Source: Candidatus Nomurabacteria bacterium (GTDB taxonomy: Bacteria; Patescibacteriota; Patescibacteriia; HK-STAS-PATE-3). From it: a stretch of 64,000 nucleotides of DNA. Both the position numbers and the translations under genes were made by a program. This document shows positions 12,479 through 63,616 of this stretch, piece after piece. The first letter of the stretch is position 1, and the number at the start of each line of letters is the position of its first letter. The stretch is taken from NCBI GenBank assembly GCA_023898465.1, contig CP060223.1, positions 960,001 through 1,024,000 of the forward strand. The letters are read 5' to 3'. The notes under the pieces are model-generated. The model made no database searches. It was not told the origin of the DNA and saw only the letters and a list, made by a program, of their open reading frames with translations.

Positions 12479-12597
12479 ACTGCTTCGATAGTAGGCTTTT
12501 TTCATAAGTCAGTCAAGAACGCTTGACCAAGTTTTATTATCTACGCTAGGGTCAGAATAGATTTTGCAATGGCTGTTTGACAATGGAGGAAAAAGCG

Positions 12598-12909
12598 ATG
12601 AGCTGCAATCCACGGAATGTGCGGAATCGTCGACGGAATCTGTACGTAGCCCTTGGCCGTTTGGGGTTGCCACCGGATCAGCATCAGGAAGAGAAGCGGA
12701 AGATACGTGATGCCTGTCGTCATGGCAGGGCCTACGTGTTGCCTCCTCGCCGCGGTCGATCCATTTCCAAGCCGGTCTGTCGACCGTGTAATGGGAAGGG
12801 AAAGCGCGACTGTCATCTCTGTAATGGCAGGAGTAGTGGATGCTACTACTGCAATTACACTGGCAAGAAGACTTGCAACGTTTGCATGGGTGAGGGAGTG
12901 ACTACCTAG
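12598..12909 (+). CDS. Small basic protein with a DnaJ-type zinc finger (4x CxxCxGxG)
   Basis: GGAGGA Shine-Dalgarno 8 nt before the ATG at 12598. C-terminus is CRPCNGKG..CHLCNGRS..CYYCNYTG..CNVCMGEG. Lies in GC-rich cassette A. Confidence 0.55.
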   Translation: MSCNPRNVRNRRRNLYVALGRLGLPPDQHQEEKRKIRDACRHGRAYVLPPRRGRSISKPVCRPCNGKGKRDCHLCNGRSSGCYYCNYTGKKTCNVCMGEGVTT

Positions 12910-12924
12910 GAGTAAGGAGCTTCG

Positions 12925-13176
12925 ATGTCACAGAAGCGGCGTGGGCACTTGCTCATGCAAACGAACGTGGTAGGACTTGGACTTATCGCGATTTGGTATA
13001 CACCAGTTGGAAAAAGTCGACACGAGCTTGTTTCCTGGACAGTTACTTTTTCCTGTGGAGAAGTGTGTAGAATCAGAGGCCGCAGCCAGCACGAAATCAT
13101 AGCAACGTCTCGTCGTGAACACGGTGAATGTCGTCTGGGGTCTGCCTGTAGAGTGATTGCCTGCGACGAGCTGTGA
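12925..13176 (+). CDS. Hypothetical Cys-containing small protein
   Basis: AAGGAG Shine-Dalgarno before the ATG; 83 aa; GC-rich cassette A. Confidence 0.45.
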   Translation: MSQKRRGHLLMQTNVVGLGLIAIWYTPVGKSRHELVSWTVTFSCGEVCRIRGRSQHEIIATSRREHGECRLGSACRVIACDEL

Positions 13177-13282
13177 CACTTCCTTGCTCGGTTGTTGTCC
13201 GAGGCTGCTTGTCGTATACTAGATCTAGCGCCTCTCTTGCGAGGCATCAACAGAGCACCTTCACATACAGAAGGAGGATCTC

Positions 13283-13384
13283 ATGAAGATCAGGTCTCCC
13301 GTGAGCGTTGTCGTATCTCCGACTGCCGATGTTGATCGGCTCAACGCCTCCGGGAAGGAGGTGGTCCTAATCGAGAGGTCCTAG
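13283..13384 (+). CDS. 33-aa peptide ORF with a perfect Shine-Dalgarno (MKIRSPVSVVVSPTADVDRLNASGKEVVLIERS)
   Basis: GAAGGAGGA Shine-Dalgarno 5 nt upstream of the ATG. Followed by terminator hairpin gacggcca/tggccgtc (~13402-13436). Confidence 0.3.
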   Translation: MKIRSPVSVVVSPTADVDRLNASGKEVVLIERS

Positions 13385-13457
13385 GAGGCGTTGTGGGTTT
13401 CTGACGGCCATACTGTGTGTGGCCGTCGTTTCTTTGCCGCAGAATCCAGGGAGGGAG

Positions 13458-13635
13458 TATGTCGAAGGAGGAATCGAATTCTGCCCTAGGGGACTTTGTC
13501 TCAACCGTGCTGGGTTTCCTCGGTGCGCTCGCAGTCATGTTTGCTGCGTTGCTCGGCGCCCTGCTTCTCGCCTTCGTGAAAACACCGGATCTCGATCCAT
13601 ATGATGATCGTGGTCCGGTCTCTCGACAGCATTGA
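13458..13635 (+). CDS. Small single-pass membrane protein
   Basis: AGGGAGGGAG Shine-Dalgarno before the ATG at 13458. Hydrophobic core VLGFLGALAVMFAALLGALLLAFV. Confidence 0.45.
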
Positions 13636-13645
13636 CTGACATCCA

Positions 13646-13672
13646 CCTCTCTAGGCAACTAGGGAGGTTTTG
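13646..13672. terminator. Bidirectional rho-independent terminator (cassette A / tsaD)
   Basis: cctctctag-gcaa-ctagggagg stem followed by ttttgctt. Confidence 0.5.
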
Positions 13673-13673
13673 C

Positions 13674-14723
13674 TTAGGTTGTTTTTGATAGACTCCAGTT
13701 TGGGTCAGCCTTGAGTAACTTCCAATCTGTATATTTTTTTTGCTTCGCCTGGAAATACCCCGCTGCGGCAATCATTGCTGCGTTATCAGTGCAGTAAGGG
13801 AGATTAGGTTTCAAAAAAGTGACGGCTGGAAATCGACGCGCGACAGCCGCGCTAAGTTCAGCGCGGAGCCGCCCATTGGCGGCCACGCCGCCGGCCAGCA
13901 GCAAAGTGTTGACCTTATGTTCTTGCAGGGCCCGCAGCGTTTTTCCAATCAACACATCAACTACCGCCTGTTCAAAAGAGGCGGCAATATCAGGCAAGTC
14001 TTTTTTCTTTGGATGATGCTTTTCTAAATGATAGCGCACGGCAGTTTTTAATCCAGCAAAAGAGAATTCAAGGTTAGCGCTTTTCAGCATTGGTCGCGGC
14101 CAGCTGTAGGCTTTTGGATTCCCTGTGCTAGCCAGCGTACTTAAGACTGGTCCACCCGGATAACCTAAACCCATTAACTTGGCCACTTTATCAAAGGCTT
14201 CGCCGGCGGCGTCGTCGCGCGTCTCACCAAGCAGTTGGAATTTCCCATAACCACGCATGAGTACAAGTTCAGTGTGACCTCCTGACACGAGTAGTCCCAA
14301 GGCTGGGAAAGGTGCCTTAAGTATACTTGGCGTATTTCCCTCCGCATCTGGTAACCAATTTGCATAGAGGTGGCCGGCCAGATGGTTCACTCCTACTAAA
14401 GGTTTTTTTAAAGTCCAAGCCAACGTCCGCCCTACTTCAACTCCAACCATTAGGGCTGACATGAGTCCTGGGCCGGCTGTCACTGCAATGACATCAATAT
14501 CTTCAAGTGTTATTTTAGCCTCATGCAGGGCAGCATCAAGGCCGGGAATAATAACTTCAAGGTGCATGCGCGCAGCTACTTCAGGCACTACGCCACCAAA
14601 TTTTGCATGAGTCTTTACCTGTGAGGCAACAAAGTGACTACGGACAAGAAAATGATCAGCCTTTCTCTCGAGAATGGCGATTGAGGTTTCGTCACAAGAT
14701 GATTCAATGCCGAGGATGATCAT
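13674..14723 (-). CDS. tsaD: tRNA N6-adenosine threonylcarbamoyltransferase TsaD (Kae1/Gcp)
   Basis: 349 aa. MIILGIESSCDETS N-terminus and HxxGH metal motif (HLAGHLYA). Confidence 0.9.
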   Translation of the reverse strand: MIILGIESSCDETSIAILERKADHFLVRSHFVASQVKTHAKFGGVVPEVAARMHLEVIIPGLDAALHEAKITLEDIDVIAVTAGPGLMSALMVGVEVGRTLAWTLKKPLVGVNHLAGHLYANWLPDAEGNTPSILKAPFPALGLLVSGGHTELVLMRGYGKFQLLGETRDDAAGEAFDKVAKLMGLGYPGGPVLSTLASTGNPKAYSWPRPMLKSANLEFSFAGLKTAVRYHLEKHHPKKKDLPDIAASFEQAVVDVLIGKTLRALQEHKVNTLLLAGGVAANGRLRAELSAAVARRFPAVTFLKPNLPYCTDNAAMIAAAGYFQAKQKKYTDWKLLKADPNWSLSKTT

Positions 14724-15298
14724 GTGAGTTGTTTCCGTCGAATGAGGAGTAAGACGCTGAGTGAACCATCAAGCAAGACAATTGCAGCCGGGTAGAGCCA
14801 GGTACTTGGTACTATAGTGTCCAGAGCCAGAAGTGCAAAGACGTGGGCAATTGCGGCAAAAGCGTAGGATAGCACCTTTTCCTCATGCGGATAATGGTAA
14901 CCTTTTCGAAAAGTAGGAAGTGAGCCAAAAAAATCAACCAAGACAATAAGTACGATGGATGCTAGAGGCTCTTTTGTGAGTATCCAAAGGAGTAAAGAAA
15001 AAGCTGCGGCACTCAAGGCAATCCAATCAAAGCGTAAGAAGCGGCGATCTCCCCATTTCAGCGCGCCAATAAATATAAGCAGGCAAGATATGGAGTTAAT
15101 CCCAGTGACCCAGGCGCCTGGCCCGGCATCTTTCGCAATCTGAGCAGCAAAGGCGATAATGTTGAGCGTACCCCAGACTAACCAGGAAAAGGCATGTGGT
15201 TTGAGCTCTTTGCGTAGAACGCCGCGGACATATAAAAGGTCTCCAGATATGAGCAGTAGCGAGCCGATAATGCCAAAAAGTGTGGTCATACTTTGCAT
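14720..15298 (-). CDS. Hypothetical polytopic membrane protein, translationally coupled to tsaD
   Basis: 192 aa with about 5 TM segments. Four-nt overlap with the tsaD start. Confidence 0.5.
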   Translation of the reverse strand: MQSMTTLFGIIGSLLLISGDLLYVRGVLRKELKPHAFSWLVWGTLNIIAFAAQIAKDAGPGAWVTGINSISCLLIFIGALKWGDRRFLRFDWIALSAAAFSLLLWILTKEPLASIVLIVLVDFFGSLPTFRKGYHYPHEEKVLSYAFAAIAHVFALLALDTIVPSTWLYPAAIVLLDGSLSVLLLIRRKQLT

Positions 15299-15396
15299 GC
15301 TGATATTGTAGCACGCGCATTGACATTTTCATGTTTTTTGCTACAGTAGCCTGTCGTTCATTACACTTGAATAGTCAGGAAAGGGAGGGCTATCAC

Positions 15397-15726
15397 ATGT
15401 TTTCGGTCTGGAATCTCGTCTGGGTGATACTCCTTGGATGCGTCTTTCTCTACTTCGGTCCTGTGCGGTTGCGGCGGCGTCGCAATAAGGTACGGCGAGA
15501 CGTGCTTGGGATGTTGTCGAAAAGGACCGTGCGAACGACAAGGCCTGAGCTGGTGTCGATGGTACGAGAAAGGCACAAGCATCCAACAGCTTTGATCGAA
15601 GAAGCGATTCGGGATCTCGTTAATCAGGGCAAGATTCTCAAACTCTCCTTCTCTGAGGGTTCGCGCAGCTACACGAACTACGTGATAGCTCAGCGAGACA
15701 GCTCGGAAGAAGGTCGTTCCCCTTAG
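15397..15726 (+). CDS. Hypothetical protein with an N-terminal TM helix (cassette B)
   Basis: AAAGGGAGGG Shine-Dalgarno before the ATG at 15397. TTGACA-17-TACAGT promoter at ~15323-15350. GC-rich. Confidence 0.45.
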   Translation: MFSVWNLVWVILLGCVFLYFGPVRLRRRRNKVRRDVLGMLSKRTVRTTRPELVSMVRERHKHPTALIEEAIRDLVNQGKILKLSFSEGSRSYTNYVIAQRDSSEEGRSP

Positions 15727-15734
15727 GTTTCGAC

Positions 15735-16034
15735 GTGAGAGGAGACGAAGTGCACGAGGCGCATATTCATGTGACTTGCTCCACAGATGAGCATGATCGC
15801 ACGAAGGACTTTTTTGAAGATCACATCGCTGATGTGGTCGATGGCTACCGAGGCGCGGGAGCAGATACCCAGATTGAAGCTGAAGGAATGATTCGGGTGA
15901 GTTTCAACTTTCCTTCAGTGGAGATGCGGGAACGTTTTTGTCGGATGGAACAACGAGCATTGAGCTTGATGCTTCGGCATGCAGGAATCAATGCGAGTTG
16001 CAGATTGTGTGCAGACGAATGCACGCAAGGATAG
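15735..16034 (+). CDS. Hypothetical protein (cassette B)
   Basis: GTG starts at 15735 or 15750, with GAGAGGAG upstream. About 95 aa. Confidence 0.35.
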   Translation: MRGDEVHEAHIHVTCSTDEHDRTKDFFEDHIADVVDGYRGAGADTQIEAEGMIRVSFNFPSVEMRERFCRMEQRALSLMLRHAGINASCRLCADECTQG

Positions 16035-16046
16035 AGAGGGGGCACC

Positions 16047-16673
16047 GTGCGTTTCTGGACTCTGTTTTTGATCCTGTGTTGTCTCTGTGCAAATACCGCC
16101 TTTGCGCGTTCACTGACCTTCACGGCCGGTGAGACTGCGGTGGCCAAGGGTGGCGGCATCGAGTACGCACAGCGTTCTGGTCAGGTTGAGTGGGCAGCCT
16201 TTGCTTATCTCAACGGCAACGTCAACGAGGGCAAAGCGCTCTTGAGCGCTGACCCCACATCGTGGTGTCGGGTTATGGCTGGTCCGATTGTGGGCCTGCA
16301 ATACCAGGACACCCTGGGCGCGCGTCTCTATGGCGGGGCTGAAGCCAAGGTGTTACCGCACTTTGGTAAAGAGCACCTCACCATCAAGGCGGCAACTCGA
16401 CACCGAGGAAGCACACGCTTCCATCATCTGGTGGTAGTGAATTGGATGCATGACTGGTCGCCGAGTATTTCGGCTGGTCCGGTCTACCAACCAATTCTGC
16501 GATCTGATCATTCCCTACCCTGGGATCACCGATTTGGCGTGCAAGTGAACTATAGTCAGAATAGTCACTTCACGTTGATGAGCGAGGTGCGAATGTCGAC
16601 CGGGTCGGCTGACGCGTCCTATGGTGTGTACCATCGGGTGAGTGGCCACATCGAACTGGCCTTCAAGTTCTGA
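16047..16673 (+). CDS. Secreted beta-barrel-like protein with an outer-membrane-protein-type C-terminus (cassette B)
   Basis: Signal peptide MRFWTLFLILCCLCANTAFA|RS. Alternating amphipathic strands and a terminal ...IELAFKF (C-terminal Phe beta-signal). GC-rich. Confidence 0.5.
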   Translation: MRFWTLFLILCCLCANTAFARSLTFTAGETAVAKGGGIEYAQRSGQVEWAAFAYLNGNVNEGKALLSADPTSWCRVMAGPIVGLQYQDTLGARLYGGAEAKVLPHFGKEHLTIKAATRHRGSTRFHHLVVVNWMHDWSPSISAGPVYQPILRSDHSLPWDHRFGVQVNYSQNSHFTLMSEVRMSTGSADASYGVYHRVSGHIELAFKF

Positions 16674-16679
16674 CTCCGA

Positions 16680-16737
16680 CCCCGTCTCTCGTAATCCGAT
16701 ACTGTCGGAGAAACGAGAGGCGGGGTTTTCTTTTATC
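16680..16737 (+). terminator. Rho-independent terminator after the beta-barrel gene
   Basis: 13-bp GC stem ccccgtctctcgt/acgagaggcgggg followed by ttttctttt. Confidence 0.7.
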
Positions 16738-16778
16738 AAAAGGAAAAAGCGCTGATGCAATGCACCAGCGCTTTGTAG

Positions 16779-17336
16779 CTAGCTAAATCGTCGAACCAAG
16801 AAGGCCGACCAACCAAGCAGATCCCACACTAGGAAGGAAAGGAAATGCCGGAAGCGTTTCTGGCAGTTACCTCCATAAGACGAGCGGGCCTTTATGACTA
16901 TGATCTCGATGCCGGAGCCATGCCACACATAGCGGAAAATCGCTCGAGCTCGCCGGGCGTGCCAAGGGTGAGTGACTAGCGCCACGCTACGCCATTCGGG
17001 GTGCTGACGCGTGATGCGCAGGACCTCGATCGCGTTATTGATAGTGCCGATTGAGCCGTTCTCCAGTATCATGTATACATTGCGTGCTCGCGCCTCGATC
17101 AAACGCTTCATCGCGATGGCTTCAGTCATGTGACCATCGTTGCCGTTGCCACCGCTCAGGACAATGCACCGAGCTAGTTCAGCTTGGTAGAGATTGAGAC
17201 CCTTGCGAGCGATTGATGCACTTTGGCGACTGGCTTGCGTGCCATCTGGCGAGAGGCCACAGCCGAGACAGATCACTGCATCGACGGGTTGTTCCGGGTT
17301 GATTCGTTCGTCTGGTATTTCCAGTCGGTGAACCAT
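16779..17336 (-). CDS. DUF218 (YdcF/SanA/ElyC-like) domain protein
   Basis: 185 aa with VICLGCG...LSGGNG..HMTEAIAMKR pattern. GC-rich, same cassette B. Confidence 0.55.
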   Translation of the reverse strand: MVHRLEIPDERINPEQPVDAVICLGCGLSPDGTQASRQSASIARKGLNLYQAELARCIVLSGGNGNDGHMTEAIAMKRLIEARARNVYMILENGSIGTINNAIEVLRITRQHPEWRSVALVTHPWHARRARAIFRYVWHGSGIEIIVIKARSSYGGNCQKRFRHFLSFLVWDLLGWSAFLVRRFS

Positions 17337-17528
17337 CCGCCGGATCCGTTTTTTAAGCCTGTTCGTATATCACCCCCATGGTTGCGATCTGTGAAAGAAC
17401 GTCCTGTTTGGTCGATAAAGTAGCACAGCGCCAGCTAGAGTCAAGTTGTCCTTCACTTGACGGAGAAAGACGTTTTTAGATATAGTGCACGTAGACAGAT
17501 TTTGGTGGCTCTCAAACGGGAGTCACCT

Positions 17529-19655
17529 ATGTTTTTACGCGCATGTATAGTATTGCTCTTTGTCTTTACGCAAAGCGTTCCCTTCTTTCCTGTGACACAG
17601 GCAATTGAAATCCCAACTGTTGTGATAAATGAGCTTATGTGGATGGGTTCATCCGCTTCCTCGGCTGACGAATGGATAGAGCTGCGTAATACTAGCGATC
17701 AACAGATAGATATTTCTGGATGGAAAATGACCAAGAAGAGCGGTGAAGACAACGCGCTCATGTTAACTATTCCAGAAAATCAATTCATTGCCCCACGGGC
17801 ATATTACCTCATTGCGAACTATGCTGATGATGCGACAAATTCACATTTAGCCATAGCACCTGATTTGGTTGAGACCGACGTCGCATTAGTAAACTCGGCC
17901 TTGCAGATTGGGCTTTATACTTCCCAAGATGAACTTATTGACAGTGCGGATGACGGAGTGGGCAAGCCCTTGGCAGGTGAGTACACATCAGGTGAAATAT
18001 GGAAATCAATGGAGCGAGTACGTGAGCCAAGTGATGGAACTAGGCCGGAGGATTGGAAGACCTCAAGCGCTCAAGTGAATTTTGATGCCGCTTCCCCAGA
18101 GTATGGTACGCCAGGGGCAGAGAATAGTAATACTGCGCCAGCGGCAAATGCTGGAGAAGATTTCTCTATCCAGGTCGGTGAAACAGCGACATTTGACGCT
18201 TCACTTTCTGAAGATGCTGACCATGACACACTTAGTTACTCATGGGATTTTGACGACGGCGGAGTTGCGAGTGGGATAACTCCTACGCACGTGTATCAAC
18301 ATGAAGGGGAATACCACGTAGTTCTGATTGTTTCCGATGGGATGCTTACATCGAGTGATGAGGTGCTGGTGAGTGTAAGCTTAGAATCAGTCTTACCAAC
18401 ACCAGAGACTCAAGAGGATAATCCAGGGGAAGAGGAGTCTAGCGATCCTGAATATATGCGGGGTAATGTGCTGCTCAATGAAGTCTTCCCTAATCCAAGT
18501 GGGCGAGATCAAGAAGCAGAGTTTATCGAGCTCTATAATGCGGATGACAAAGCGGTTTCGCTGAGCGGCTGGAAAGTAACCAATGATAAAAGCTCATATC
18601 ACTTTGATGATCAAGTAATTGCACCTGGAGCCTTTCTCTCCATATCATATTCGACGAGTAAAGTCTTGCTGCGCAATAGCGGCGGTGTAGTTCGACTAGT
18701 AAACCCCTTCAATGAAATAGTGAGCGGGTTAGAGTACGGCGTGGCCGAAGAAGCAATGAGCTTTGCTCGAGTGAATGATACGACACATTGGGAATGGACA
18801 AGCCTGCCCACCCCCGGGAGTGAAAATGAGATTGAGCAAGATATTTCTTCTTCAAACACGGAAGTAGAAGGAGATAGCAACGCAATAATTTTAGAAAAGA
18901 CAAACGAGACTAATACAAGCCTTCCAAAAAATATTAAGGTGGCTGAAATTGCCGGACTTGATCCAAAAACCCTTGTGCAAGTTGAAGGTGTGGTGACCGC
19001 CGCGCCAGGCATGTTCTCCGTTTCGTCATTTTGGCTGCAGGATGAGAGTGGGGCAGCCGAGGTTTCATCAACAAATAAACTATTCCCAGAGCTAGAGCTT
19101 GGCAATCTCGTGCGCGTGATTGGTACGGTGTCGAGTGCTGGAGAGGGCTTACGCATAAACCAGCGCAAAGATGAAATTGAAGTAATTGGTGTGAGCGTTG
19201 TAGCTCCTGAGGAATTGCAAAGCGATGATCTTAATGAGGCACTCATTGGTCATCTCGTGAGCGTCCAGGGACAGATAACAAAATCAGCCAAGACAAAACT
19301 CACCTTGCGTGATGAGCAGGGTGAATTGGCCGTCGTCGCCAAGAAAGGCACTGAGCTTGATCTCAGTAGTTTCAGCGTTGATGAGCCCGTGCAGATTCTC
19401 GGCATACTTGGATGGACAAGCGCTGGGCCACAAATTTGGCCAAGGACTATTGAAGATATTCAAATTGCCGGAGAGGTTTTAGGCGAAGCAACAAGCTTAG
19501 AAGCTCAAACTCCACTTACTGACTCGACAGCCATCGTGAATGATGATCGAAAAGTATTTCCCACCTGGTTAGTTATGGTAATCATCGGTGTCATGTTAAG
19601 TCTGGGAGCGTGGTGGTACTGGAAACATCGCGTCGATACCACTTCCCATGTCTAA
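17529..19655 (+). CDS. Large surface protein: 2x lamin-tail domain (LTD) + PKD domain + OB-fold-like region + C-terminal TM anchor
   Basis: Signal/TM N-terminus. LTD motifs (INELMW..DEWIELRN.., LLNEVFPNP..EFIELYN). PKD signature (LSYSWDFDDG...HVY..G.Y). C-terminal TM WLVMVIIGVMLSLGAWWYW. Confidence 0.7.
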   Translation: MFLRACIVLLFVFTQSVPFFPVTQAIEIPTVVINELMWMGSSASSADEWIELRNTSDQQIDISGWKMTKKSGEDNALMLTIPENQFIAPRAYYLIANYADDATNSHLAIAPDLVETDVALVNSALQIGLYTSQDELIDSADDGVGKPLAGEYTSGEIWKSMERVREPSDGTRPEDWKTSSAQVNFDAASPEYGTPGAENSNTAPAANAGEDFSIQVGETATFDASLSEDADHDTLSYSWDFDDGGVASGITPTHVYQHEGEYHVVLIVSDGMLTSSDEVLVSVSLESVLPTPETQEDNPGEEESSDPEYMRGNVLLNEVFPNPSGRDQEAEFIELYNADDKAVSLSGWKVTNDKSSYHFDDQVIAPGAFLSISYSTSKVLLRNSGGVVRLVNPFNEIVSGLEYGVAEEAMSFARVNDTTHWEWTSLPTPGSENEIEQDISSSNTEVEGDSNAIILEKTNETNTSLPKNIKVAEIAGLDPKTLVQVEGVVTAAPGMFSVSSFWLQDESGAAEVSSTNKLFPELELGNLVRVIGTVSSAGEGLRINQRKDEIEVIGVSVVAPEELQSDDLNEALIGHLVSVQGQITKSAKTKLTLRDEQGELAVVAKKGTELDLSSFSVDEPVQILGILGWTSAGPQIWPRTIEDIQIAGEVLGEATSLEAQTPLTDSTAIVNDDRKVFPTWLVMVIIGVMLSLGAWWYWKHRVDTTSHV

Positions 19656-19702
19656 AAATACTTGCCGTAAAGGAAAAAATATGCTATACTTCCCTTACAA
19701 AA

Positions 19703-21529
19703 ATGCAAAAGAAAAAAATAGACAAGCGATCATTGTCATGGCAGCTTCTGACACTACTAGGCGTTTTTCTTTTTGTTGTTGTAGCGCAAAAGAGCTTAGC
19801 TGATACGGCGTACTATGTTGATCAAAACAATGTAAGTTGTTCAGATGCGGGACCTGGCTCACCTTCTGTTCCTTTCTGTAGTTTAGTGCCCACACAGGGA
19901 GTAGTGGCTCCAGGAGATACGGTATATATAGCTGACGGGCGCTATGGTGATCCCCTCAGCTTTACTGTTTCAGGGACTGAGGGTAATCCTATTCGCTACA
20001 TCGCTCAAGGCGAGAACGTTGTCCTTGGTGTTTTTGAAGACTTGGTAGATGAAAATTTTACCAAAACTCCCGGGTACACCAATGTGTATGAAATAGCTTT
20101 ACCCATAAGCGATCCTGACCATCGTTTGTTCCAAACCTATTTCCCCGACATCCTGGTAGACGATCCGGACAATGATTCATACTTTACCATGAAAGATGCG
20201 GATGGTCCTTTAGGACTCACTGAGACGGATGATTTGACCCTTGTCGATGAAAACGAGGGGTCCTGGATGATTAGTGGTGAGACTATTTATGCGCATGCTT
20301 ATGGCAGCCGTGTTCCAAGCACTGCATCAACAGATTTTGTGTATACCTACGATAAATGGCAATTAGGAATTGGGGCATCAATTTCCTATCTTGTGTTTGA
20401 CGGTTTCCAATTTCACTACAACGGAGAGTATAACTTTGTCGTAAACGGCACGCACAATACATTTTATAATATTAAAAAAACAAGTGGCTTTGAAATACGA
20501 GGAAGTGATAACTACGCTGAAGGGATAACCGCGAGCCACGAAATAACTCGGAATGCTCCTAGTGGGAGCTTTTACAGTGGCGCAAGTGGTTACGGTTTGT
20601 TTATCCGAGGTACAAATAACACCTTAAAAGATATTCACGTATTTCATAATTGGAATAATATTGGAGTGAATGGAAGCAACATCACTATTCAAAGCGGCGA
20701 GATTCATGGCTCACCAAATCATTGTTTTCAACCTCAACACAATGATGGATTGACCATACAAAATCTAAAATCTTGGAATTGCCAAGATGGCTATGGATAT
20801 ATCTCGGGTGATGTTACTAATGCAGTTTTTGAGAATGGGACCGTGCAGTCGAGTATTCTTTTTCAAGACCTAATTGTTGCTGCACATTATCCAAATAGCA
20901 ATCTTACTTTTCGGAATATGCTATTTAATGACTGTAAGATTATTACCGGAGGATATGGCGTTAACGAGTGTAGCTATGAAAGCACAGTCACAATAGAAAA
21001 CTCGATTTTTTTCTGTGATAATATTTCGAATTTTGAGATTCAGCATTGCGTTGCACCAGGAAATCTTGAGACCTATTCCTCGATCGCTGCATATCAGGCA
21101 AATTGTGGAGACAACTGTATGACCTTAAATAACGTTCAGTTGATCGATACAAACCATACTAACGTTATTCAGGGTGGTAAGTGGCCAGGTGAAACACCGC
21201 TCTGGGATATTCATATTCCAAATGAAAGTAGTGTAGCCTTTGATGCCGGATCTTCATTAGCTAGCTCAAGTATTGACTACGAAGGCGACACTCGACCACA
21301 AGGGCTTAGATACGACATTGGCGCTGACGAATTACCAGTTGTAGATTCAGGAGGAGAAGAATGTACACCTGATTGGCAATGTGACGCTTGGGCATCGTGC
21401 AGCAATGGCAATCAAACGCGAACTTGCCATGATAGTAATAGCTGTGGCACTGAGAGTGGACGACCGAGTCAGAGCAGATCCTGCGACTCCTATGTACCGG
21501 GCAGAATAACTAACTTACGCGTCGAGTAA
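19703..21529 (+). CDS. Surface right-handed beta-helix (pectate-lyase-fold) protein with a C-terminal Cys-rich module
   Basis: N-terminal TM. Beta-helix repeats with many N/G/I rungs. C-terminal CTPDWQCDAWASCSNGNQTRTCHDSNSCGTESGRPSQSRSC. Confidence 0.6.
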   Translation: MQKKKIDKRSLSWQLLTLLGVFLFVVVAQKSLADTAYYVDQNNVSCSDAGPGSPSVPFCSLVPTQGVVAPGDTVYIADGRYGDPLSFTVSGTEGNPIRYIAQGENVVLGVFEDLVDENFTKTPGYTNVYEIALPISDPDHRLFQTYFPDILVDDPDNDSYFTMKDADGPLGLTETDDLTLVDENEGSWMISGETIYAHAYGSRVPSTASTDFVYTYDKWQLGIGASISYLVFDGFQFHYNGEYNFVVNGTHNTFYNIKKTSGFEIRGSDNYAEGITASHEITRNAPSGSFYSGASGYGLFIRGTNNTLKDIHVFHNWNNIGVNGSNITIQSGEIHGSPNHCFQPQHNDGLTIQNLKSWNCQDGYGYISGDVTNAVFENGTVQSSILFQDLIVAAHYPNSNLTFRNMLFNDCKIITGGYGVNECSYESTVTIENSIFFCDNISNFEIQHCVAPGNLETYSSIAAYQANCGDNCMTLNNVQLIDTNHTNVIQGGKWPGETPLWDIHIPNESSVAFDAGSSLASSSIDYEGDTRPQGLRYDIGADELPVVDSGGEECTPDWQCDAWASCSNGNQTRTCHDSNSCGTESGRPSQSRSCDSYVPGRITNLRVE

Positions 21530-21530
21530 T

Positions 21531-27986: not shown

Positions 27987-28012
27987 GGAGCCCGAGAAAT
28001 TTCTCAGGCTCC
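27987..28012. terminator. Bidirectional hairpin terminator after polA
   Basis: ggagcccgagaaatttctcaggctcc, a near-perfect 26-nt palindrome. Confidence 0.5.
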
Positions 28013-28022
28013 ATAGTCGAGT

Positions 28023-28280: not shown

Positions 28281-28385
28281 GACTCCTCCTCTGCTGCAAG
28301 TCAAAAATGCGCCCCATGAGCTAAAGAGCGTAACATACGACGTCAGATTTACTCATTAGCCTACTTGTGTCAAGATAGCTGAGCT

Positions 28386-32328: not shown

Positions 32329-32413
32329 AGTTTAGGTAGTGTAGCATGTCTTGACATTCATGTATGGTCCGCTATGGTTGCTGCAGTTCTTTTGAGTTTG
32401 CCAAGGAGGGACT

Positions 32414-48867: not shown

Positions 48868-48962
48868 GATTTATTCTACCCTCCCTTTGCCTAGATGCAT
48901 GTCACATGCTATGCTTTTTGAGTTGCCGCAATGTTGCGGTACGAGCCTCGAAGGAGGACTAG

Positions 48963-49091
48963 ATGCACACGACGACTCGACTCAGGGGACCGACGACGTC
49001 GACAACGAAGGCGCGGTATCAGAAGAAGACGACGGCCTGGCTCGATCAAGGTGTGATCGCCAGCGTCACGAAGTCGGGCGGCCAGGACTAG
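48963..49091 (+). CDS. 42-aa Thr/Arg-rich mini-ORF (cassette G)
   Basis: AAGGAGGA Shine-Dalgarno before the ATG. GC-rich. Terminator 49117-49152. Confidence 0.25.
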   Translation: MHTTTRLRGPTTSTTKARYQKKTTAWLDQGVIASVTKSGGQD

Positions 49092-49116
49092 CGCATCCCT
49101 GCTAGCTCTTGGAACA

Positions 49117-49152
49117 GCGGCCATACTCCGTGTATGGCCGCTCCTTTTCTTG
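49117..49152 (+). terminator. Rho-independent terminator before ftsK
   Basis: gcggccata-ctccgtg-tatggccgc followed by tccttttctt. Confidence 0.6.
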
Positions 49153-53325: not shown

Positions 53326-55710
53326 TTAGTAGCCAGTATTCGCGATGATCGTAGAGAGAAACTCAGCCGGAAATTTCGGGGGCTGGTCGGCTAAGGCTTG
53401 ATGGTAAATAACCGTAGATCCAGTTAAACCTGGTAAGGTGTTTACCTCAATAACATGTATTGCCCCAGTTTTGAGATGAACAAAGATATCGATCCGCGCG
53501 TAGCCTCGTATGCCTAGTGCAGTGGCTAGTTCAGCAATACGCTGCCTTACCTTCTCCACCGTCGATCCTTGAATCAAATGTTCAGGCGGTGGCGTGATAT
53601 TAATTCCAGTACCACCTTGGAATTTTTCTTCAACAGTGAGGACTTCACCCTCCGCGATCGTGATACTCGGAGCTAAGGCGTGTATTTTTCCTCGCACCTC
53701 AATCACTCCGGCAGTCATTTCCACCCAACCTGATACTGGCAGGTGCTTCATTTTATTCGCTTTGACCCGTAGCTTGTCAGTGGCAATGAAGCGTTCAATG
53801 AGGAGGCGCTTCGGAGCGGCGCTTGGTAACTCAATAATATCAGCCTGTCCGTGGAAAGTATTTTTAGGTATGTACGCAGCTCTTTTTTGTAGATACGCCA
53901 AGTAGGTTTTAAGATCCTGCGCGGTGAAGATGTGTGCGACTCCAGTTGTGCAGCCATCACTTTGCGGCTTGATAATAAAGGTTTTTGAATGAAGTTCTGT
54001 ATGTAATTTTTTCCAGAGCGCTTCAATTTGGCTACTTGTCATATGCAAAAGCGTGCTCGTCAAGAAGCTTTCTCCAGCAATTGCCTGCACCCCGGGTATG
54101 TTGAGTTGGCGAATGGCTTCCGCAGTTTTCCATTTATCCATACAGAGTTGAGAAGTCGTGGCTGGGGAGCCATTAAATTTTACCTTTGCCTTTTCGCAGG
54201 CTGCCTGAAGTGTCCCGTCTTCACCCTTACCACCATGCAGTGCAATGAAAAGGAAAGATGATGAGTGAAGGAGTTCATTCAGACTCAGTTTTCTCGGGTC
54301 AAAAAAGTCTTGTGCATTCTTCTCTTCTCGTAAACCTAGCTTGATTCGGGCCCGACGCTCAAAGTCCTCCAGCCGATGTTTTTCGTTTGGGTATTGCTGA
54401 CAGTTTTCCATTATTTCCTCTACCGTGTGATTCAAGCTGAGATGGTAGGGCAGCTTCCACACATCGCCATGTGTATCAAGCAAGTAGGGCTGTGGCTCAT
54501 ACTCTTTTGTTTGCCGTAGCTTTAGCCAGACATTTGTTCCACTCATGAGAGAAACCTGGCGCTCGGAGTTGCTCCCACCCATGAGAATTGTCACCGTCTT
54601 CCCTTTCTTTTTTTGTGAAGAGATTTCAGGGAAGTGAACACCTTGACGCGCGCTAGAGTGCTGTACAATGTATTGCAAAACATCCCGATGCGTTAGTCCT
54701 ACTCGAGCGGCCTGCTGGAAAAGAAAACTGTTTTGCTCCATACCGCTTACGGTATTAAAGTCACAGAACCATATTTTTCCATTAGGTAACACCCATCCGT
54801 CAAAACGAGCAGCATCGTGCATGCCAAAGAGGCGGAAGAGCTGTTCCCCTTGCGCCTGAATGCGTTCAATAATCTCTTGGCTAAAGCGAGGAGGGCAGTG
54901 CCATGTTACCTGTCGAGTTGGTAAATATTTCCTGCGGAAGTCAAAGATTTGATGCTCTGTATAGTCTGTTTCAATCTCAGTTGGCGGTAGGGCTACCGGC
55001 AGGGCAAACTGGTTTTCTAGTATGATCATGGTAAATTCCTTGCCCTGCGCAAAAGGCTCCACAACCACCCGGGTATCCATTCGCTTTGAGAAAATGAGTT
55101 TTGTTTTCTCGAGTGCTTCCTGAGGTGTTGCCACTGAAAATACTCCGATACTTGATCCGCCGCTAGCGGGCTTTACTACTGCGCGCTGGACTTTGTTATT
55201 TGCAAAAAAATCTTTGAGTATTTTTTCGTGATCAGTATGAAAAATTTTTAATACCGCGGAGGGAAGGGTAAAAAAATCGTGCCCAGCAATAAATGTATTT
55301 GCCGTGTGCTTATCAAAAGCCAGTCGACAAGCCTTTGATCCGGAGCCAACAAAAGGGATAGCATGTTTTTCTAAGAAACGCTGGATGCCACCATCCTCCC
55401 CAAAAGGTCCGTGCATCGCCGGGAAGGTGATAGCCACTTCTCGTAGCTTTTTCACTAGCGCTGCTGTGGTGAGTGGTGTGGCTGTTTGTTGAAGTTTAAA
55501 ATCAAAATCCGAAGGGGTGTTACTGTAGAGTTGGGCTTGAGAAATTTGATAGGCTTGTTTTTTGTTATCAAAATAAATTGGCACAATCTCAATTTGCTCA
55601 GATTTTAAGTGATCCATGAGCGAGCGAGCCGAGTTTAAAGAGATACCCCGTTCGAGTGAGGGGCCTCCGCAGAGCACTGCTACAGAAAATTTTGCAGATT
55701 TTTTTGCCAT
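53326..55710 (-). CDS. ddl: Tandem D-alanine--D-alanine ligase fusion (two complete Ddl/ATP-grasp units in one 794-aa polypeptide)
   Basis: N-terminal unit begins VAVLCGGPS.ER.ISL.SA. A second unit begins around aa 370 (VTILMGGSNSERQVSLMSG). Each is followed by an ATP-grasp core. Confidence 0.75.
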   Translation of the reverse strand: MAKKSAKFSVAVLCGGPSLERGISLNSARSLMDHLKSEQIEIVPIYFDNKKQAYQISQAQLYSNTPSDFDFKLQQTATPLTTAALVKKLREVAITFPAMHGPFGEDGGIQRFLEKHAIPFVGSGSKACRLAFDKHTANTFIAGHDFFTLPSAVLKIFHTDHEKILKDFFANNKVQRAVVKPASGGSSIGVFSVATPQEALEKTKLIFSKRMDTRVVVEPFAQGKEFTMIILENQFALPVALPPTEIETDYTEHQIFDFRRKYLPTRQVTWHCPPRFSQEIIERIQAQGEQLFRLFGMHDAARFDGWVLPNGKIWFCDFNTVSGMEQNSFLFQQAARVGLTHRDVLQYIVQHSSARQGVHFPEISSQKKKGKTVTILMGGSNSERQVSLMSGTNVWLKLRQTKEYEPQPYLLDTHGDVWKLPYHLSLNHTVEEIMENCQQYPNEKHRLEDFERRARIKLGLREEKNAQDFFDPRKLSLNELLHSSSFLFIALHGGKGEDGTLQAACEKAKVKFNGSPATTSQLCMDKWKTAEAIRQLNIPGVQAIAGESFLTSTLLHMTSSQIEALWKKLHTELHSKTFIIKPQSDGCTTGVAHIFTAQDLKTYLAYLQKRAAYIPKNTFHGQADIIELPSAAPKRLLIERFIATDKLRVKANKMKHLPVSGWVEMTAGVIEVRGKIHALAPSITIAEGEVLTVEEKFQGGTGINITPPPEHLIQGSTVEKVRQRIAELATALGIRGYARIDIFVHLKTGAIHVIEVNTLPGLTGSTVIYHQALADQPPKFPAEFLSTIIANTGY

Positions 55711-60870: not shown

Positions 60871-60882
60871 AGGTGTGTTTGC

Positions 60883-61380
60883 TTATTTGATGAGATCTTG
60901 TTCAAGGAGCTCGTCGATTTTTTCGTCTAAGTTTTCGAGAGAAGCGCGATCGTCTTCTTTTTCCACCTTGCGAGAAGAGGTGTTTTCCTCTTTTTCATCG
61001 CGTGACTCTTCAGCCTCGCTTTGCGCTTCTGCGCGTCGCTTGGCTTGAATGCGTTCTTGCAATTCCCGCTGGGCTGCTTCCATTTCTGGAGTGCGGACTG
61101 GCAAACGGATAATCTGATGACGTACTAAGTCTTGCTCGAGTCGAAAAATGCGATCGAGCTCAGCTAACTTTGTGCCGTCGATATCAAGCTCAAGAAGGAC
61201 ATAGAAGCCCTGCTTTAAGTGATTAATCTCATAGGCTAAGCGGCGCTTGCCCATGTTTTCGATTTTGGTGATTTGTCCACCAATATCGCTGATGTGCTTT
61301 TGCAACGTAGAAGCGTATTGTTCAGCTTCTTCGTCAGTAAAGCGGGGGTTGATGAGGAGGAGTAATTCGTAGTGTTGCAT
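60883..61380 (-). CDS. rpsF: 30S ribosomal protein S6 with an acidic C-terminal extension
   Basis: MQHYELLLLINP... First gene of the rpsF-ssb-rpsR operon. Start trimmed to the internal ATG. Confidence 0.85.
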   Translation of the reverse strand: MQHYELLLLINPRFTDEEAEQYASTLQKHISDIGGQITKIENMGKRRLAYEINHLKQGFYVLLELDIDGTKLAELDRIFRLEQDLVRHQIIRLPVRTPEMEAAQRELQERIQAKRRAEAQSEAEESRDEKEENTSSRKVEKEDDRASLENLDEKIDELLEQDLIK

Positions 61381-61688
61381 ATGCTGAATTAAGAATATCG
61401 CACGGATGGCGGACCCGGGCGATGTAGACTTAGCTATATCGTGCGGGGGCCCTTGAGGGGTAATCCTTACTTCGCATAGAGCTCGAAGGACTGTCCGCAA
61501 TCTCGTTGTAAAAGCACCCTAACACAGGGTTATTTTTTTGGCAAGGGTAGAGAAAGTAAAGCACGAAACTCCAAATACAAGGCTCTAAACAAATTCTAAA
61601 TCCAAAACATTTACTAAATAGACTGAATTTAGGTCATTGAAATTTCTTATTTGTTTGGATATTCGATATTAGTATTTAGAATTTATCT

Positions 61689-62921
61689 ATGAGACTGTGC
61701 TACACTTCTCCTATGCCCCAGTATTACTTTATTCTTGGTAAAAACCCGAAGCTCTCTTTAGCAGAGCTAGACCAAGCCCTGCAGACTCGTGCCATTACCA
61801 GCGAAGTGGTGGCTCGTGCTTCTGACTACTGTATTTTGGAGACCAAAGAAGAGTTAAATCTGGTGGAGTTATTGCAGCACTTGGGAGGTACACTGAAGGC
61901 AGGGCAAATACTTGAAGGGCTTTCTTCACGAGATGAAGTACAAAGTATCTGCGCAAATGTAGATTGGGCAGAGAAAAAACTACCGCTCACAAAACATCGG
62001 GCAGAATTTGGTATAAGCGTCTACGGGACAAAAAAGTCTGGACCCTTAAGTAAGCGCTATGGTCTAGGTTTAAAAAAAGCATTGCAGTCAATTGGACATT
62101 CTGTGCGGATGATTTTTGATCCAAGCGGCCAACTCAGCAGTGTTACCGTAGCAAAGAATGGATTACTGAGTAAGGGTTTTGAGCTTTGCGTGTTAGAAAG
62201 TGCCACTCAACATTGGCTTGGACTTAGTCAGGCAGTGCAATCATTCCGCAAGTTTAGTGAGCGGGATTATGGCCGACCTGACCGTGATGCGCGCAATGGC
62301 ATGCTTCCGCCAAAGTTGGCACTCATGATGCTTAATATTGCGGGCGCAAAAAGCGGAAGCGTCGTGCTCGATCCTTTTTGTGGATCAGGTACTGTACTGC
62401 AAGAAGCACTTTTGCTGGGATGCAAAAAAGTTTATGGTTCGGATATTAGCGAGAAGGCGGTAAAAGATTCGCAAAATAATGTACAGTGGCTTAGTACGCA
62501 GGAGAAGTCGATTGGCACTGTGCAGATACGTAAAGTTGACGCTCGTCAGCTGCGTCCTACCTATGTCGCAGAGTCGGTTGATGTGATTGTGACCGAGCCA
62601 GACCTTGGTCCGCCGCGACCGGCGCGTAACGAGGAGCAAATAGAAGAACGACGACAAGAAGCCATTGCTTTGTATCGATCTTTCTTATCATCAGCGACCA
62701 AGGTGTTGAAGGCAAACGGTCGGGTGGTTATGGCTTGGCCCGTTTGGTCTCTGCAGGATACTCGTTATCACTTGCATCCAAAGAAAATACTACCAGACGG
62801 CTGGACACTACTTTGGCCCTATGGTGATCTAGTATCGCAGGATGGTGAAAAGACCTTGCTCTATGAGCGACCAGGTCAGTTTGTAGCTCGTGAGATTGTG
62901 ATACTCTCCCCAAATAAATAG
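61689..62921 (+). CDS. Class I SAM-dependent RNA methyltransferase with a THUMP-like N-terminal region (RlmL/Trm14-like)
   Basis: Motif I VLDPFCGSGTV. Acidic residue after beta2 (YGSDIS). Motif IV-like VTEPDLGPP. Confidence 0.6.
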   Translation: MRLCYTSPMPQYYFILGKNPKLSLAELDQALQTRAITSEVVARASDYCILETKEELNLVELLQHLGGTLKAGQILEGLSSRDEVQSICANVDWAEKKLPLTKHRAEFGISVYGTKKSGPLSKRYGLGLKKALQSIGHSVRMIFDPSGQLSSVTVAKNGLLSKGFELCVLESATQHWLGLSQAVQSFRKFSERDYGRPDRDARNGMLPPKLALMMLNIAGAKSGSVVLDPFCGSGTVLQEALLLGCKKVYGSDISEKAVKDSQNNVQWLSTQEKSIGTVQIRKVDARQLRPTYVAESVDVIVTEPDLGPPRPARNEEQIEERRQEAIALYRSFLSSATKVLKANGRVVMAWPVWSLQDTRYHLHPKKILPDGWTLLWPYGDLVSQDGEKTLLYERPGQFVAREIVILSPNK

Positions 62922-62991
62922 CCTTGACATTGATGTCGGCATTACTTATGTTGGCAGTGTTTGTTGCACCTTAAAGAGGAGGGAAGAGTCG

Positions 62992-63180
62992 ATGGGAGAT
63001 TGTGAGGGTGAACACGAGGGCGTTAGGACTGGACTTACGGAAGTCTACTGGGATCCCAAATCAGGGAAGTTTCTATATAGAGGCCGTACGCGTCCGGGTG
63101 TGCCCAGTGAAAGGTCCATCAAGTCGAAGCTCGGGGAGAAGTCGAAATCTCGAAAGAAAAGGAGTGGCAAGAAGAAATGA
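62992..63180 (+). CDS. Small Lys/Arg-rich hypothetical protein (cassette H)
   Basis: GAGGAGGGAAG Shine-Dalgarno before the ATG. 62 aa ending SRKKRSGKKK. Terminator 63191-63222. Confidence 0.35.
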   Translation: MGDCEGEHEGVRTGLTEVYWDPKSGKFLYRGRTRPGVPSERSIKSKLGEKSKSRKKRSGKKK

Positions 63181-63616
63181 GGCGGCGTATGGCGACACAT
63201 CAGGACGATGGTCGCCTTTTTCTTATAAAAAGCAAAAAGCTGAGATAGTGACTAGTTTCAAAAAATGAACGAAAAAGAGACTGACACAGAGGCCAGTCTC
63301 TTTGGAATTCAATCAGATCGCGTTATCGAACACGAGTCCCCATCATTTGTTGACGGGGCCGCGGAATGACGCGGGGAGGTGGCGAGGGTCGAGTGGTGCG
63401 TCTGCTTTGGATGAGCAGGCGGGCCGCCATTCGTACAGCAAATCGTCCGTCAACACAAGGGCGAAGTCCGTATTTGAAATTCGCCCACAGGGTTCTCCTG
63501 TTCGTGGCGATCATGCCAGTCCTTTCGTTGCAGTGTGGAAAGTGCATTCCCTCCACTAACATAGCTAGTATAGCGCGTTCCTATACGACTGCAAGTGGAT
63601 AGCGTACAATGCACAT

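Follow-up and report, generated by a model that had tools for sequence, protein, structure and literature searches.

The morons of lambdoid phages, known through the work of Hendrix and colleagues, are small units, of a single gene up to a few, that bring a sigma-70-type promoter and a factor-independent terminator of their own. In relatives the two flanking genes are direct neighbours, and the base composition of the unit differs from that of the genes around it. Here we describe gene cassettes of similar anatomy in a Candidatus Nomurabacteria bacterium, a member of the Patescibacteria (Candidate Phyla Radiation, CPR). We analysed 64 kb of its small, symbiont-type genome of 1.08 Mb; this whole stretch of DNA is referred to as the window, and positions are counted within it. 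The window holds approximately 20-21 cassette open reading frames (ORFs) in approximately 14 self-contained units. These are found in nine stretches, namely islands 1 to 8, numbered in order of position, and a ninth cassette at 8562-8918. The description of cassettes and core genes as two classes with different layouts is correct and statistically solid. We consider the window to be probably that of a Patescibacteria genome with two gene-expression layouts, in which the cassettes are an old accessory compartment and not fresh imports.

Morons are the closest anatomical match to the cassettes, which likewise have promoter and intrinsic terminator motifs of their own. A moron-like insertion between otherwise adjacent genes is seen for islands 2 and 4, but not for islands 3 and 5, whose sites are occupied in relatives. 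Unlike morons, the cassettes are chromosomal, several are positionally conserved over deep divergence, and no phage relatives were found in PHROG (beyond Prs and a PurH-like protein), IMG/VR or INPHARED. With classical integrative islands the cassettes share atypical composition, variable presence and recurrent hotspots. They are, however, 0.3-3 kb in size, against 10-200 kb for classical islands, and no integrase or flanking direct repeats were found. By their defining features the cassettes are neither integrative islands nor recent horizontal arrivals; a recent arrival should be absent from close relatives, and the sole absences seen were those of islands 2 and 4 from relatives at a greater distance.

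Gene finders distinguish a class of "atypical" genes, whose GC content and codon usage are off the genome model. Horizontal acquisition is the usual interpretation, and such genes account for approximately 8-9% of all genes in an average genome (Lomsadze et al. 2018, PMC6028130). Like atypical genes and genomic islets, the cassettes depart from the genome model in both properties. Atypical genes are more often AT-richer, whereas the cassettes are GC-richer, have an initiation signal differing from that of the core, and are in several cases old and syntenic. The core genes resemble those of the GeneMarkS-2 "group C", in which a Pribnow box is located 6-10 nt before the starts of the first genes of many operons and Shine-Dalgarno (SD) sites are found on other genes. 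Group C has been described mainly for Actinobacteria and Deinococcus-Thermus (PMC6028130). Similarly, 11 of 25 first-in-operon core genes of the window have a -10 box close to the start (mode 6 nt), the SD sites are on the cassettes, and transcription of such core genes is predicted to start at the ATG. Here the two modes separate core genes from compositionally distinct accessory genes, a division that is not reported for the described group C cases, and core genes internal to operons are also SD-less. What is new is a variation on known themes, in which accessory status goes together with SD-dependent expression and with a GC-rich codon regime that persists; the cassettes are not a new kind of element.

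In brief, a cassette unit consists of a TTGAC -35 box, a -10 box, a leader of 36-122 nt, an AGGAGG SD site, the start codon and a GC-stem terminator. Of 20 cassette ORFs, 17 match the anti-SD complement over at least 5 nt, at a distance of 2-9 nt 5' of the start codon (4-9 nt in 16 of them); of 45 core genes only 6 do so, even when the start with the best SD site is chosen for them (Fisher p = 4e-8). The combination of SD site, start codon and an ORF of at least 30 amino acids (aa) occurs 16 times in the stretches, compared with 2.6 +/- 1.5 times in dinucleotide shuffles; the corresponding numbers for the other 55 kb are 11 and 7.8 +/- 3.0. Seven of the 13 full TTGACN-16/18-TANNNT sites of the window stand 36-122 nt 5' of cassette ORFs. 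Among the nine strongest hairpins of a consensus scan (at least 10 pairs, at least five of them G-C), eight are at cassette ends, and a free-energy scan for terminators agrees with the consensus scan. In islands 5 and 6 the T-tract of a terminator continues into the next -35 box, for example GGCTTTTTCTTGAC. Read at the level of motifs, the cassettes thus appear to have an autonomous promoter-terminator architecture. An initial annotation of the same DNA had proposed a stereotyped build of TTGAC hexamer, SD site 4-9 nt before the start and terminator, which these counts and the excess over shuffles bear out.

The same annotation had seen no integrase, transposase or direct-repeat boundary, and our searches agree. 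No Pfam, NCBIfam or PHROG family of integrases, recombinases or transposases was found in any of 21 cassette ORFs, and repeat searches of 12200-17600 and 35300-39500 gave no direct repeats flanking the boundaries. The cassette terminators at 13405-13420 and 49118-49133 have a common stem, CGGCCATACT..GTGT. This match is not independent evidence of a repeat family, because the search pattern was derived from these two terminators.

The housekeeping genes confirmed by Pfam, which include those named in the initial annotation, are dnaA, dnaN, polA, holA, uvrB, ruvA, a FemAB-family gene, murE, rpoB/C, ftsK, recA, a double ddl, efp, ssb and rpsF. The nearest relatives of the core proteins are Patescibacteria, and the matches of TsaD and MurE are named Patescibacteria, Kerfeldbacteria or Nomurabacteria. 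The initial annotation described the SD sites of the core as mostly weaker. The direction was right and the difference understated, as the core is essentially without SD sites. The best -10 box of the 11 first-in-operon core genes mentioned above is located 1-13 nt before the start and often reads TGnTAnnnT. None of the 15 first genes of cassettes has a -10 box in this range, and none has one closer than 47 nt (Fisher p = 0.002); the background rate of such a box before an ATG in any frame is 7.7%. A Pribnow box 1-13 nt before the ATG suggests leaderless transcripts.

An example of the core layout is the gene for a 192-aa membrane protein (14720-15298, minus strand), with TGcTACAAT 6 nt before the ATG and without an SD site. 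The same layout is found at 23295, 25195 (polA), 32328 (uvrB), 33737 (ruvA), 39206, 49193 (ftsK), 58768, 58886 and 61689. The starts of downstream genes in core operons overlap the preceding stop codon. A search of a paper library gave no report of group C organisation, leaderless transcription or SD usage in CPR/Patescibacteria.

For comparison we used contigs of relatives that carry TsaD or MurE orthologues (56-96% identity) or homologues of two cassette proteins; they are given here by L numbers. The Pribnow box next to the ATG is conserved upstream of orthologues in L083, L084 and L091. The split between the two classes recurs in L084, L086, L088, L091 and L109. There, small genes of unknown function and the genes for Prs and the inosine monophosphate cyclohydrolase-like (IMPCH-like) protein of island 5 have GGAGG or AAGGAGG, whereas polA, tsaD, murE, ftsK and other core genes have no SD site and a Pribnow box beside the ATG. 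The split between SD-led and core genes was also seen in L083.

The GC content of islands 1 to 8 is 53.5, 53.7, 55.0, 53.0, 55.3, 52.4, 56.5 and 50.5%, respectively. Pooled over the 8,983 nt of these stretches it is 53.8%, versus 46.6% for the rest and 47.6% for the whole window. The contrast is weak for the last stretch (62940-63600), which ranks at the 82nd percentile among stretches of the same length. Judging by eye, the initial annotation had set mid/upper-50s against low/mid-40s %GC; the contrast holds, and its size is approximately 7 points rather than 10-15. All eight stretches that it listed are indeed GC-richer, though the unit at 8562-8918 was overlooked. Nor are they intergenic, as had been stated: they bear genes, among which the NCBI record lists prs, the YdcF gene and several hypothetical ones.

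The pooled GC content at third codon positions (GC3) is 0.602 for cassette ORFs and 0.444 for 45 core genes (Mann-Whitney p = 1e-9). At second positions (GC2) the values are 0.462 and 0.388, and the codon-position GC pattern of cassette ORFs is typical of coding sequence. Relative synonymous codon usage (RSCU) of the cassettes correlates with the window core at r = 0.21 and with core genes of GC-rich relatives at 0.50-0.63. Tetranucleotide z-scores of the stretches correlate with the rest of the window at 0.47, compared with 0.60 +/- 0.055 for random core chunks of the same size. GC3, RSCU and tetranucleotides all set the stretches apart from the core, a difference on which the initial annotation had made its proposal depend. 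AGA and AGG (AGR) account for 20.6% of Arg codons in cassettes versus 4.9% in the core, and the excess in the cassette class is also found in relatives (12-16% versus approximately 5%). Relative to the core, the cassette ORFs are enriched 4.0-fold in Cys and 1.6-fold in Arg, in line with the Arg/Cys-rich products noted before.

The synteny comparison that had been suggested gave a divided result, as islands 2, 3 and 5 are held in some relatives and islands 2 and 4 are absent in others. The same four genes of island 2 are found at the same place in L087, whose TsaD is 96% identical, and in L091. The island 2 proteins are 56-69% identical to those of L091 (64% for the DUF218 protein) and synonymous divergence (dS) is 0.7 to >3, near saturation; despite this, the GC contrast is still visible between the window and L091. 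Against L087, dS of the island 2 genes is heterogeneous (0.13-0.62), with 0.28-0.36 for the core. Island 2 is absent in L083 and L084, where the flanking genes are 190-680 nt apart; in L084 the LTD/PKD gene and a 193-aa gene are separated by 190 nt. Island 4 is absent in the distant relative L092, in which the uvrB-ruvA spacer is approximately 170 nt. A metagenome scan with the FemAB-like protein gave only distant relatives (at most 42% identity) and was useful only for this spacer. Relative to some relatives, islands 2 and 4 are real insertions.

Syntenic homologues of the Cys-rich island 3 protein, with a GPCxVxGCxGxV motif, are encoded in the polA-holA interval of L083 (99 aa) and L084 (101 aa). 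The order of genes at island 5, that is a membrane-protein gene, a small ORF, the IMPCH-like gene and Prs, recurs in L109. The IMPCH-like protein is 60% identical to its syntenic homologue in L109, and its best match, at 61%, is from a related Patescibacteria contig. In L088, Prs precedes an 80aa-DUF1003-murE block. A neighbour-joining tree of the Prs of the window, that of L088 and the 80 best Prs matches from 185,579 species genomes placed the first two as sisters. Outside the clade, the nearest Prs among these species representatives is from Omnitrophota, with at most 52% identity. The DUF218 protein gave matches only within the same clade.

Other sites are more variable. The gene content of the tsaD-valS spacer, the site of island 1, differs among all five of the window, L083, L084, L086 and L087. 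Only a zinc-finger ORF (with L083, same strand) and a 58-aa ORF (with L087) are shared. The rpoC-ftsK spacer, the site of island 7, is approximately 1 kb and different in L088 and L090, and the spacer of the ninth cassette holds different small ORFs in relatives. IS200/IS605-type Y1 transposase genes are found in the tsaD-valS spacer of L086 (1475-1981) and upstream of a 79aa-DUF1003-murE block in L090 (8445-8900); both spacers are occupied by cassettes in the window.

The closest relatives fetched by TsaD or MurE, other than L087 and L091, have 54-58% GC and a core GC3 of 0.57-0.76. The core genes of L087 and L091 are low-GC, as in the window. In the GC-rich relatives, genes of the cassette class look native in composition; several cassettes keep their position in relatives with 60-70% core protein identity. 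Core GC3 in the window versus these relatives is 0.44 versus 0.72 for TsaD, 0.42 versus 0.67 for murE and 0.43 versus 0.75 for rpoB, and the gene for a 187-aa membrane protein next to island 5 has 0.48 versus 0.75. The cassette genes differ less, with 0.59 versus 0.66-0.71 for Prs and 0.66 versus 0.77 for the IMPCH-like gene. The contrast in the window thus arises because its core GC3 is approximately 0.27 below that of the GC-rich relatives, and that of the cassettes only approximately 0.07-0.12 below.

The core (dnaA/N, polA, holA, uvrB, ruvA, murE, rpoBC, ftsK, tsaD and others) is essentially SD-less, and we suggest that many of its genes are leaderless, with transcription from an extended -10 box 6-12 nt before the ATG. 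The cassettes would have been inserted at a few intergenic hotspots from foreign or fast-evolving genes, and afterwards been inherited vertically within the genus or family. They would be translated by 30S/SD-dependent initiation, and the core by SD-independent initiation. The raised GC3 of the cassettes, their use of codons ending in G or C and their fourfold AGA/AGG excess would then represent a codon regime that has not converged on the core. Because relatives show the AGR excess in their cassette class too, this regime seems persistent and class-specific. The cause may be weak selection on codons, some biased process where hotspots recombine, or a shared accessory pool through which genes are exchanged. 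Translational selection for high expression, as a cause of the GC3, is contradicted by the G3/A3 pattern and the AGR usage. In the genes for elongation factor P (EF-P), S6, S18, SSB and L34 the only shift is one of T3 to C3, and AGR codons are avoided (4.8%); in the cassettes, G3 and C3 are both raised. Of the two explanations offered in the initial annotation, that of a distinct class of lineage-specific accessory modules is supported by the composition and by the SD-led, leadered and individually terminated expression signals.

Several points weigh against an old accessory compartment with an expression layout of its own. Old, vertically inherited cassettes should, by neutral theory, have converged on the GC3 of the core, which they have not. 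The comparison with L091 rests on a core sample of two gene fragments. The two classes are also not clean. recA has a TAAGGAG SD site and rpoB a 137-nt leader, and both have core composition; conversely, the YdcF/DUF218 gene is a cassette gene without a clear SD site. Two large genes for surface proteins at 19610-23024, with a Pel9A-like beta-helix and FG-GAP repeats, are absent from this place in L083 and L084, have a native GC content of 42-47% and are without SD sites, so not all accessory genes belong to the cassette class. The cassette starts were placed by reading the sequence, partly by the SD sites themselves. This circularity is lessened, not removed, by the shuffle test and by independent gene calls (Logan assemblies, NCBI record). 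The three smallest ORFs (33, 39 and 42 aa) are candidates put forward from their signals alone. Motif position and conservation suggest the leaderless core starts and the SD use, and to call the pattern "genome-wide", as the initial annotation did, is an extrapolation from 64 kb of 1.08 Mb.

A different explanation is that the cassettes are native and that something actively keeps their synonymous sites GC-rich. This could be selection tied to leadered, SD-dependent, short monocistronic mRNAs, a biased process such as GC-biased gene conversion at recombination hotspots, or repeated recombination with a family-wide accessory pool of on average approximately 55-60% GC. We regard it as unlikely, although several observations would fit. 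The contrast outlasts saturated synonymous divergence, the same genes look native in GC-rich relatives, where the AGR excess is again class-specific, the hotspot spacers are clearly recombinogenic, and the dS of island 2 genes against L087 is heterogeneous. However, the SD-led recA has core GC3 and highly expressed genes shift C3 only. Recombination and gene conversion are putative routes, and we know of no mechanism that ties SD use to the GC3 of a whole gene.

The other explanation in the initial annotation was repeated horizontal acquisition from a high-GC host or partner. In this case the cassettes would be recent, un-ameliorated DNA from a higher-GC donor, which could also be a GC-rich sister lineage within the Patescibacteria. 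Their GC3, tetranucleotides and codon usage are atypical, with RSCU nearer to the core of GC-rich relatives (0.50-0.63) than to their own core (0.21) and rare AGR codons in excess. Such composition would fit imports; on the other hand, it is still present between the window and L091, where dS is near saturation. The occupancy of hotspots is variable, with islands 2 and 4 absent in some relatives, but synteny of islands 2, 3 and 5 extends to relatives whose core identity is 60-96%. The closest Prs outside the clade is from Omnitrophota/PVC (Planctomycetes-Verrucomicrobia-Chlamydiae), at 52% identity, yet the neighbour-joining sister of the Prs of the window is that of L088. Compared with the GC-rich sister clade, cassette proteins are 47-60% identical and core proteins approximately 71%; being the less similar, the cassette proteins give no sign of recent transfer from that clade. 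Most cassette ORFs have no family and fall in 90%-identity clusters of one to three members, which would also suit an import. No donor above 64% identity was found, nor any integrase, transposase, att repeats, or phage, plasmid or defence links. With syntenic copies in relatives and no close donor, acquisition is poorly supported as a recent event, and we consider this explanation quite improbable.

A phage origin was rejected, as PHROG matched only Prs and the PurH-like domain and the flanks are chromosomal housekeeping genes. IMG/VR scans with the 208-aa and 166-aa proteins and an INPHARED blastn search with island 2 gave nothing, and neither cassettes nor flanks contain phage structural or replication genes. 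A tblastn search with the PurH-like protein gave only cyanophage PurH2 and bacterial purH, at 32-35% identity. For a plasmid origin there were only weak prs matches. PADLOC gave nothing for defence systems beyond weak matches of phosphoribosyltransferase (PRTase) domains to Prs.

The reality of the cassette genes is supported from several sides. Several of their proteins are identical to "Candidatus Nomurabacteria bacterium" proteins from a metagenome-assembled genome (MAG) in NCBI, with locus tags H6760_048xx-049xx. Two Logan assemblies hold contigs with 99-100% identical cassette proteins, and the genes called there translate exactly to the query. Runs SRR12358675/76 contain the same sequence. 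Start codons differ among annotation pipelines. Exact copies of the ORFs at 12598-12909, 28026-28229 and 62992-63181 were not found in a collection of 15 billion proteins, which does hold the other NCBI-annotated cassette ORFs. No pipeline has called any of the three, although homologues of the first two are present in relatives. For five cassette genes compared with L087, the ratio of nonsynonymous to synonymous substitutions (dN/dS) is 0.14-0.45 and dS is similar to that of neighbouring core genes. The individual dN/dS values are 0.23 for the 58-aa ORF (88% identical), 0.14 for DUF218 and 0.14-0.45 for the island 2 operon. The cassette genes tested are under purifying selection. That the stretches are non-coding GC-rich spacers or structured RNA genes with short ORFs as by-products is highly improbable and largely refuted for ORFs of at least 58 aa: GC-rich DNA does yield long chance ORFs, several spurious antisense ORFs occur in the window, three cassette ORFs are below 45 aa and most are family-less, but codon-position GC is of the coding type, dN/dS is low, SD site, start and ORF coincide six times as often as in shuffles, three ORFs have curated family matches, and Rfam has no match in the island regions searched. 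These Rfam searches covered the whole window at the gathering threshold, and 12150-12600, 36100-39250 and 62900-63650 at E <= 1.

Three cassette products belong to known families. Ribose-phosphate diphosphokinase (Prs) matches NF002320 over its full length (334 bits, cut-off 297) and Pribosyltran_N with E = 3e-46. The PurH-like protein of island 5b matches Pfam MGS (28.7 bits, cut-off 24.1) and positions 7-195 of the 510 of NF002049. PurH chains in the PDB align with it at residues 4-191, and the 5-aminoimidazole-4-carboxamide ribonucleotide (AICAR) transformylase domain is missing. Stand-alone relatives of this domain, of approximately 195-210 aa, are common in metagenomes, and there is likeness also to the cyanophage "PurH2". 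The island 5b protein is a stand-alone PurH-type IMP-cyclohydrolase domain, whose enzymatic activity is putative. The third product is a 185-aa protein with a DUF218 match (68.1 bits, Pfam gathering cut-off 27.6), named YdcF family protein in NCBI. The remaining cassette ORFs have no family in Pfam, NCBIfam, PHROG or PADLOC. They encode small proteins with CxxC pairs, small membrane proteins, a 208-aa protein with a signal peptide, and acidic or Arg-rich proteins.

The ninth cassette (8562-8918, minus strand) has an 82-aa ORF at 8593-8841 with a GGAGG SD site, 52% GC and a GC3 of 0.53. Its predicted promoter, TTGACC-17-TATATT, runs from 8916, and a hairpin is located at approximately 8568-8593.

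Island 1 (12523-13672, plus strand) has a candidate promoter, TTGACC-18-TAGGGT, at 12523. The first ORF, 12598-12909, encodes 103 aa with four CxxCxG-type zinc-finger motifs. It is followed by 12925-13176 (83 aa, Cys-rich) and 13283-13384 (33 aa), with a terminator at 13402-13428, and by 13459-13635 (58 aa, membrane helix), with a terminator at 13645-13668. Pseudogene remnants were looked for in island 1 by tblastn with the RidA-like and AAA genes of the tsaD-valS spacer of relatives, and none were found. Next to it, on the minus strand, the valS leader (12203-12520) is 320 nt, GC-rich and contains a T-box-like AGGTGGTACC, followed by a terminator hairpin and T-run before the valS ATG. Motif and hairpin are also present 5' of valS in L083 and L084, although part of the L083 leader is N. 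The leader may be a divergent T-box; it matched no Rfam family at E <= 1.

Island 2 consists of a plus-strand operon, 15320-16730, and a minus-strand unit, 16746-17444. The operon has a predicted promoter, TTGACA-16-TACAGT, at 15320-15347. Its ORFs are 15397-15726 (109 aa, one membrane helix, weak winged-helix match), 15750-16034 (94 aa) and 16047-16673 (208 aa, signal peptide, predicted all-beta), and a terminator of -30 kcal/mol is located at approximately 16683-16724. The 208-aa secreted protein has predicted beta strands, and a single-sequence AlphaFold model of it was unusable, with a predicted local distance difference test score (pLDDT) of 35. The minus-strand unit carries the YdcF/DUF218 gene, 16779-17336, with a putative promoter, TTGACT-16-TACTTT, from 17444 and a terminator at 16774-16746.

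Island 3 (27987-28385, minus strand) has a 67-aa Cys-rich ORF (67 codons plus stop) at 28026-28229 with an AAGGAG SD site, and its terminator, 28012-27987, is common to polA, the two genes being tail-to-tail. Island 4 (32351-33688, plus strand) has a candidate promoter, TTGACA-16-TATGGT, at 32351-32378 and a terminator at 33659-33688. Its ORFs are 32414-32776 (120 aa, membrane), 32773-32997 (74 aa) and 33134-33634 (166 aa, acidic).

Island 5 comprises three plus-strand units and is the only cassette stretch near a tRNA gene, with tRNA-Arg located 600 nt upstream. Unit 5a (36151-36730) has a predicted promoter, TTGACT-17-TAGTGT, at 36151, a 130-aa ORF at 36301-36693 with a GGAGG SD site, and a terminator at 36701-36730 whose T-tract enters the next -35 box, TTTTTCTTGACA. 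Unit 5b (36736-37465) carries the 191-aa gene for the putative IMP-cyclohydrolase (MGS-like) domain protein at 36811-37386, with an AAGGAGG SD site and a terminator at approximately 37424-37465. Unit 5c (37473-38567) carries the 327-aa prs at 37548-38531, with a predicted promoter, TTGACT-16-TAAGGT, at 37473, an AAGGAGG SD site and a terminator at approximately 38537-38567. The 5' end of tRNA-Arg(CCG) is repeated exactly over 14 nt (35375-35388 and 35480-35493). The copy is located 105 nt before the tRNA gene, in the GC-rich spacer that follows the FemAB-family gene; nothing is enclosed by this repeat, the only tRNA-related one found.

In the GC-rich relative L109, the junctions before the IMPCH-like gene and Prs (2164-2306 and 2889-3057) are by eye approximately 80-85% identical over approximately 110 nt. 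Each consists of a terminator hairpin, TGcTACACT, a hairpin GGCGAAA..TTCGCC, GTTTTG and then the SD site. The junctions may be a shared attenuator or riboswitch-like leader of two nucleotide-metabolism genes. They have no Rfam match and no counterpart in the window.

Island 6 (38581-39163, plus strand) consists of two units. The first has TTGACC at 38581, a 39-aa CxxC...CxC ORF at 38650-38769 and a terminator at approximately 38817-38846. The second has TTGACA at 38856, a 67-aa ORF at 38921-39124 that is annotated in the NCBI record, and a terminator at 39140-39163. Island 7 (48868-49152, plus strand), in the rpoC-ftsK spacer, has a candidate 42-aa ORF at 48963-49091 with an AAGGAGG SD site and a terminator at 49116-49142. 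Island 8 (62924-63600) is the weakest, with 50.5% GC, and consists of convergent plus- and minus-strand units. The plus-strand unit has a putative promoter, TTGACA-17-TATGTT, at 62924, a 62-aa ORF at 62992-63181 and a terminator at approximately 63187-63216; the minus-strand unit has a 74-aa Arg-rich ORF at 63323-63547 and a terminator at approximately 63277-63248.

Two further observations concern other genes of the window. ARAGORN called a tRNA-Met at 6578-6662, inside a DHH-family coding sequence (5642-6793). Rfam finds no tRNA there, and the call is thus probably false. A 794-aa protein encoded at 53326-55710 on the minus strand contains the N- and C-terminal Pfam domains of Ddl twice each, a tandem Ddl-Ddl fusion with two D-Ala-D-Ala ligase modules.

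What is said of the biology of CPR/Patescibacteria derives almost entirely from annotation. Should their core genes lack leaders and SD sites, and their accessory genes be SD-led and compositionally atypical, standard gene finders would mis-call both classes. The combination of SD site, own promoter, terminator and raised GC3 would provide a sequence handle for the lineage-specific gene set, which is the likeliest place for host-interaction factors. The GC3 contrast of 0.15, kept over saturated synonymous divergence, is a small and clean test case for compositional heterogeneity in a 1-Mb genome. More speculatively, the genome in this Patescibacteria family may be divided into two translation regimes kept apart through speciation, namely an SD-independent, largely leaderless core and SD-dependent, individually insulated cassettes for small Cys/Arg-rich and envelope proteins and a nucleotide-salvage pair. 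Selection, biased conversion or exchange via a shared accessory pool would then actively maintain the GC-rich codon usage of the cassettes, which would not be a fading mark of import; we hold this to be a doubtful proposition. If it were true, the cell could switch its whole accessory set via the initiation pathway, for example on contact with a host.

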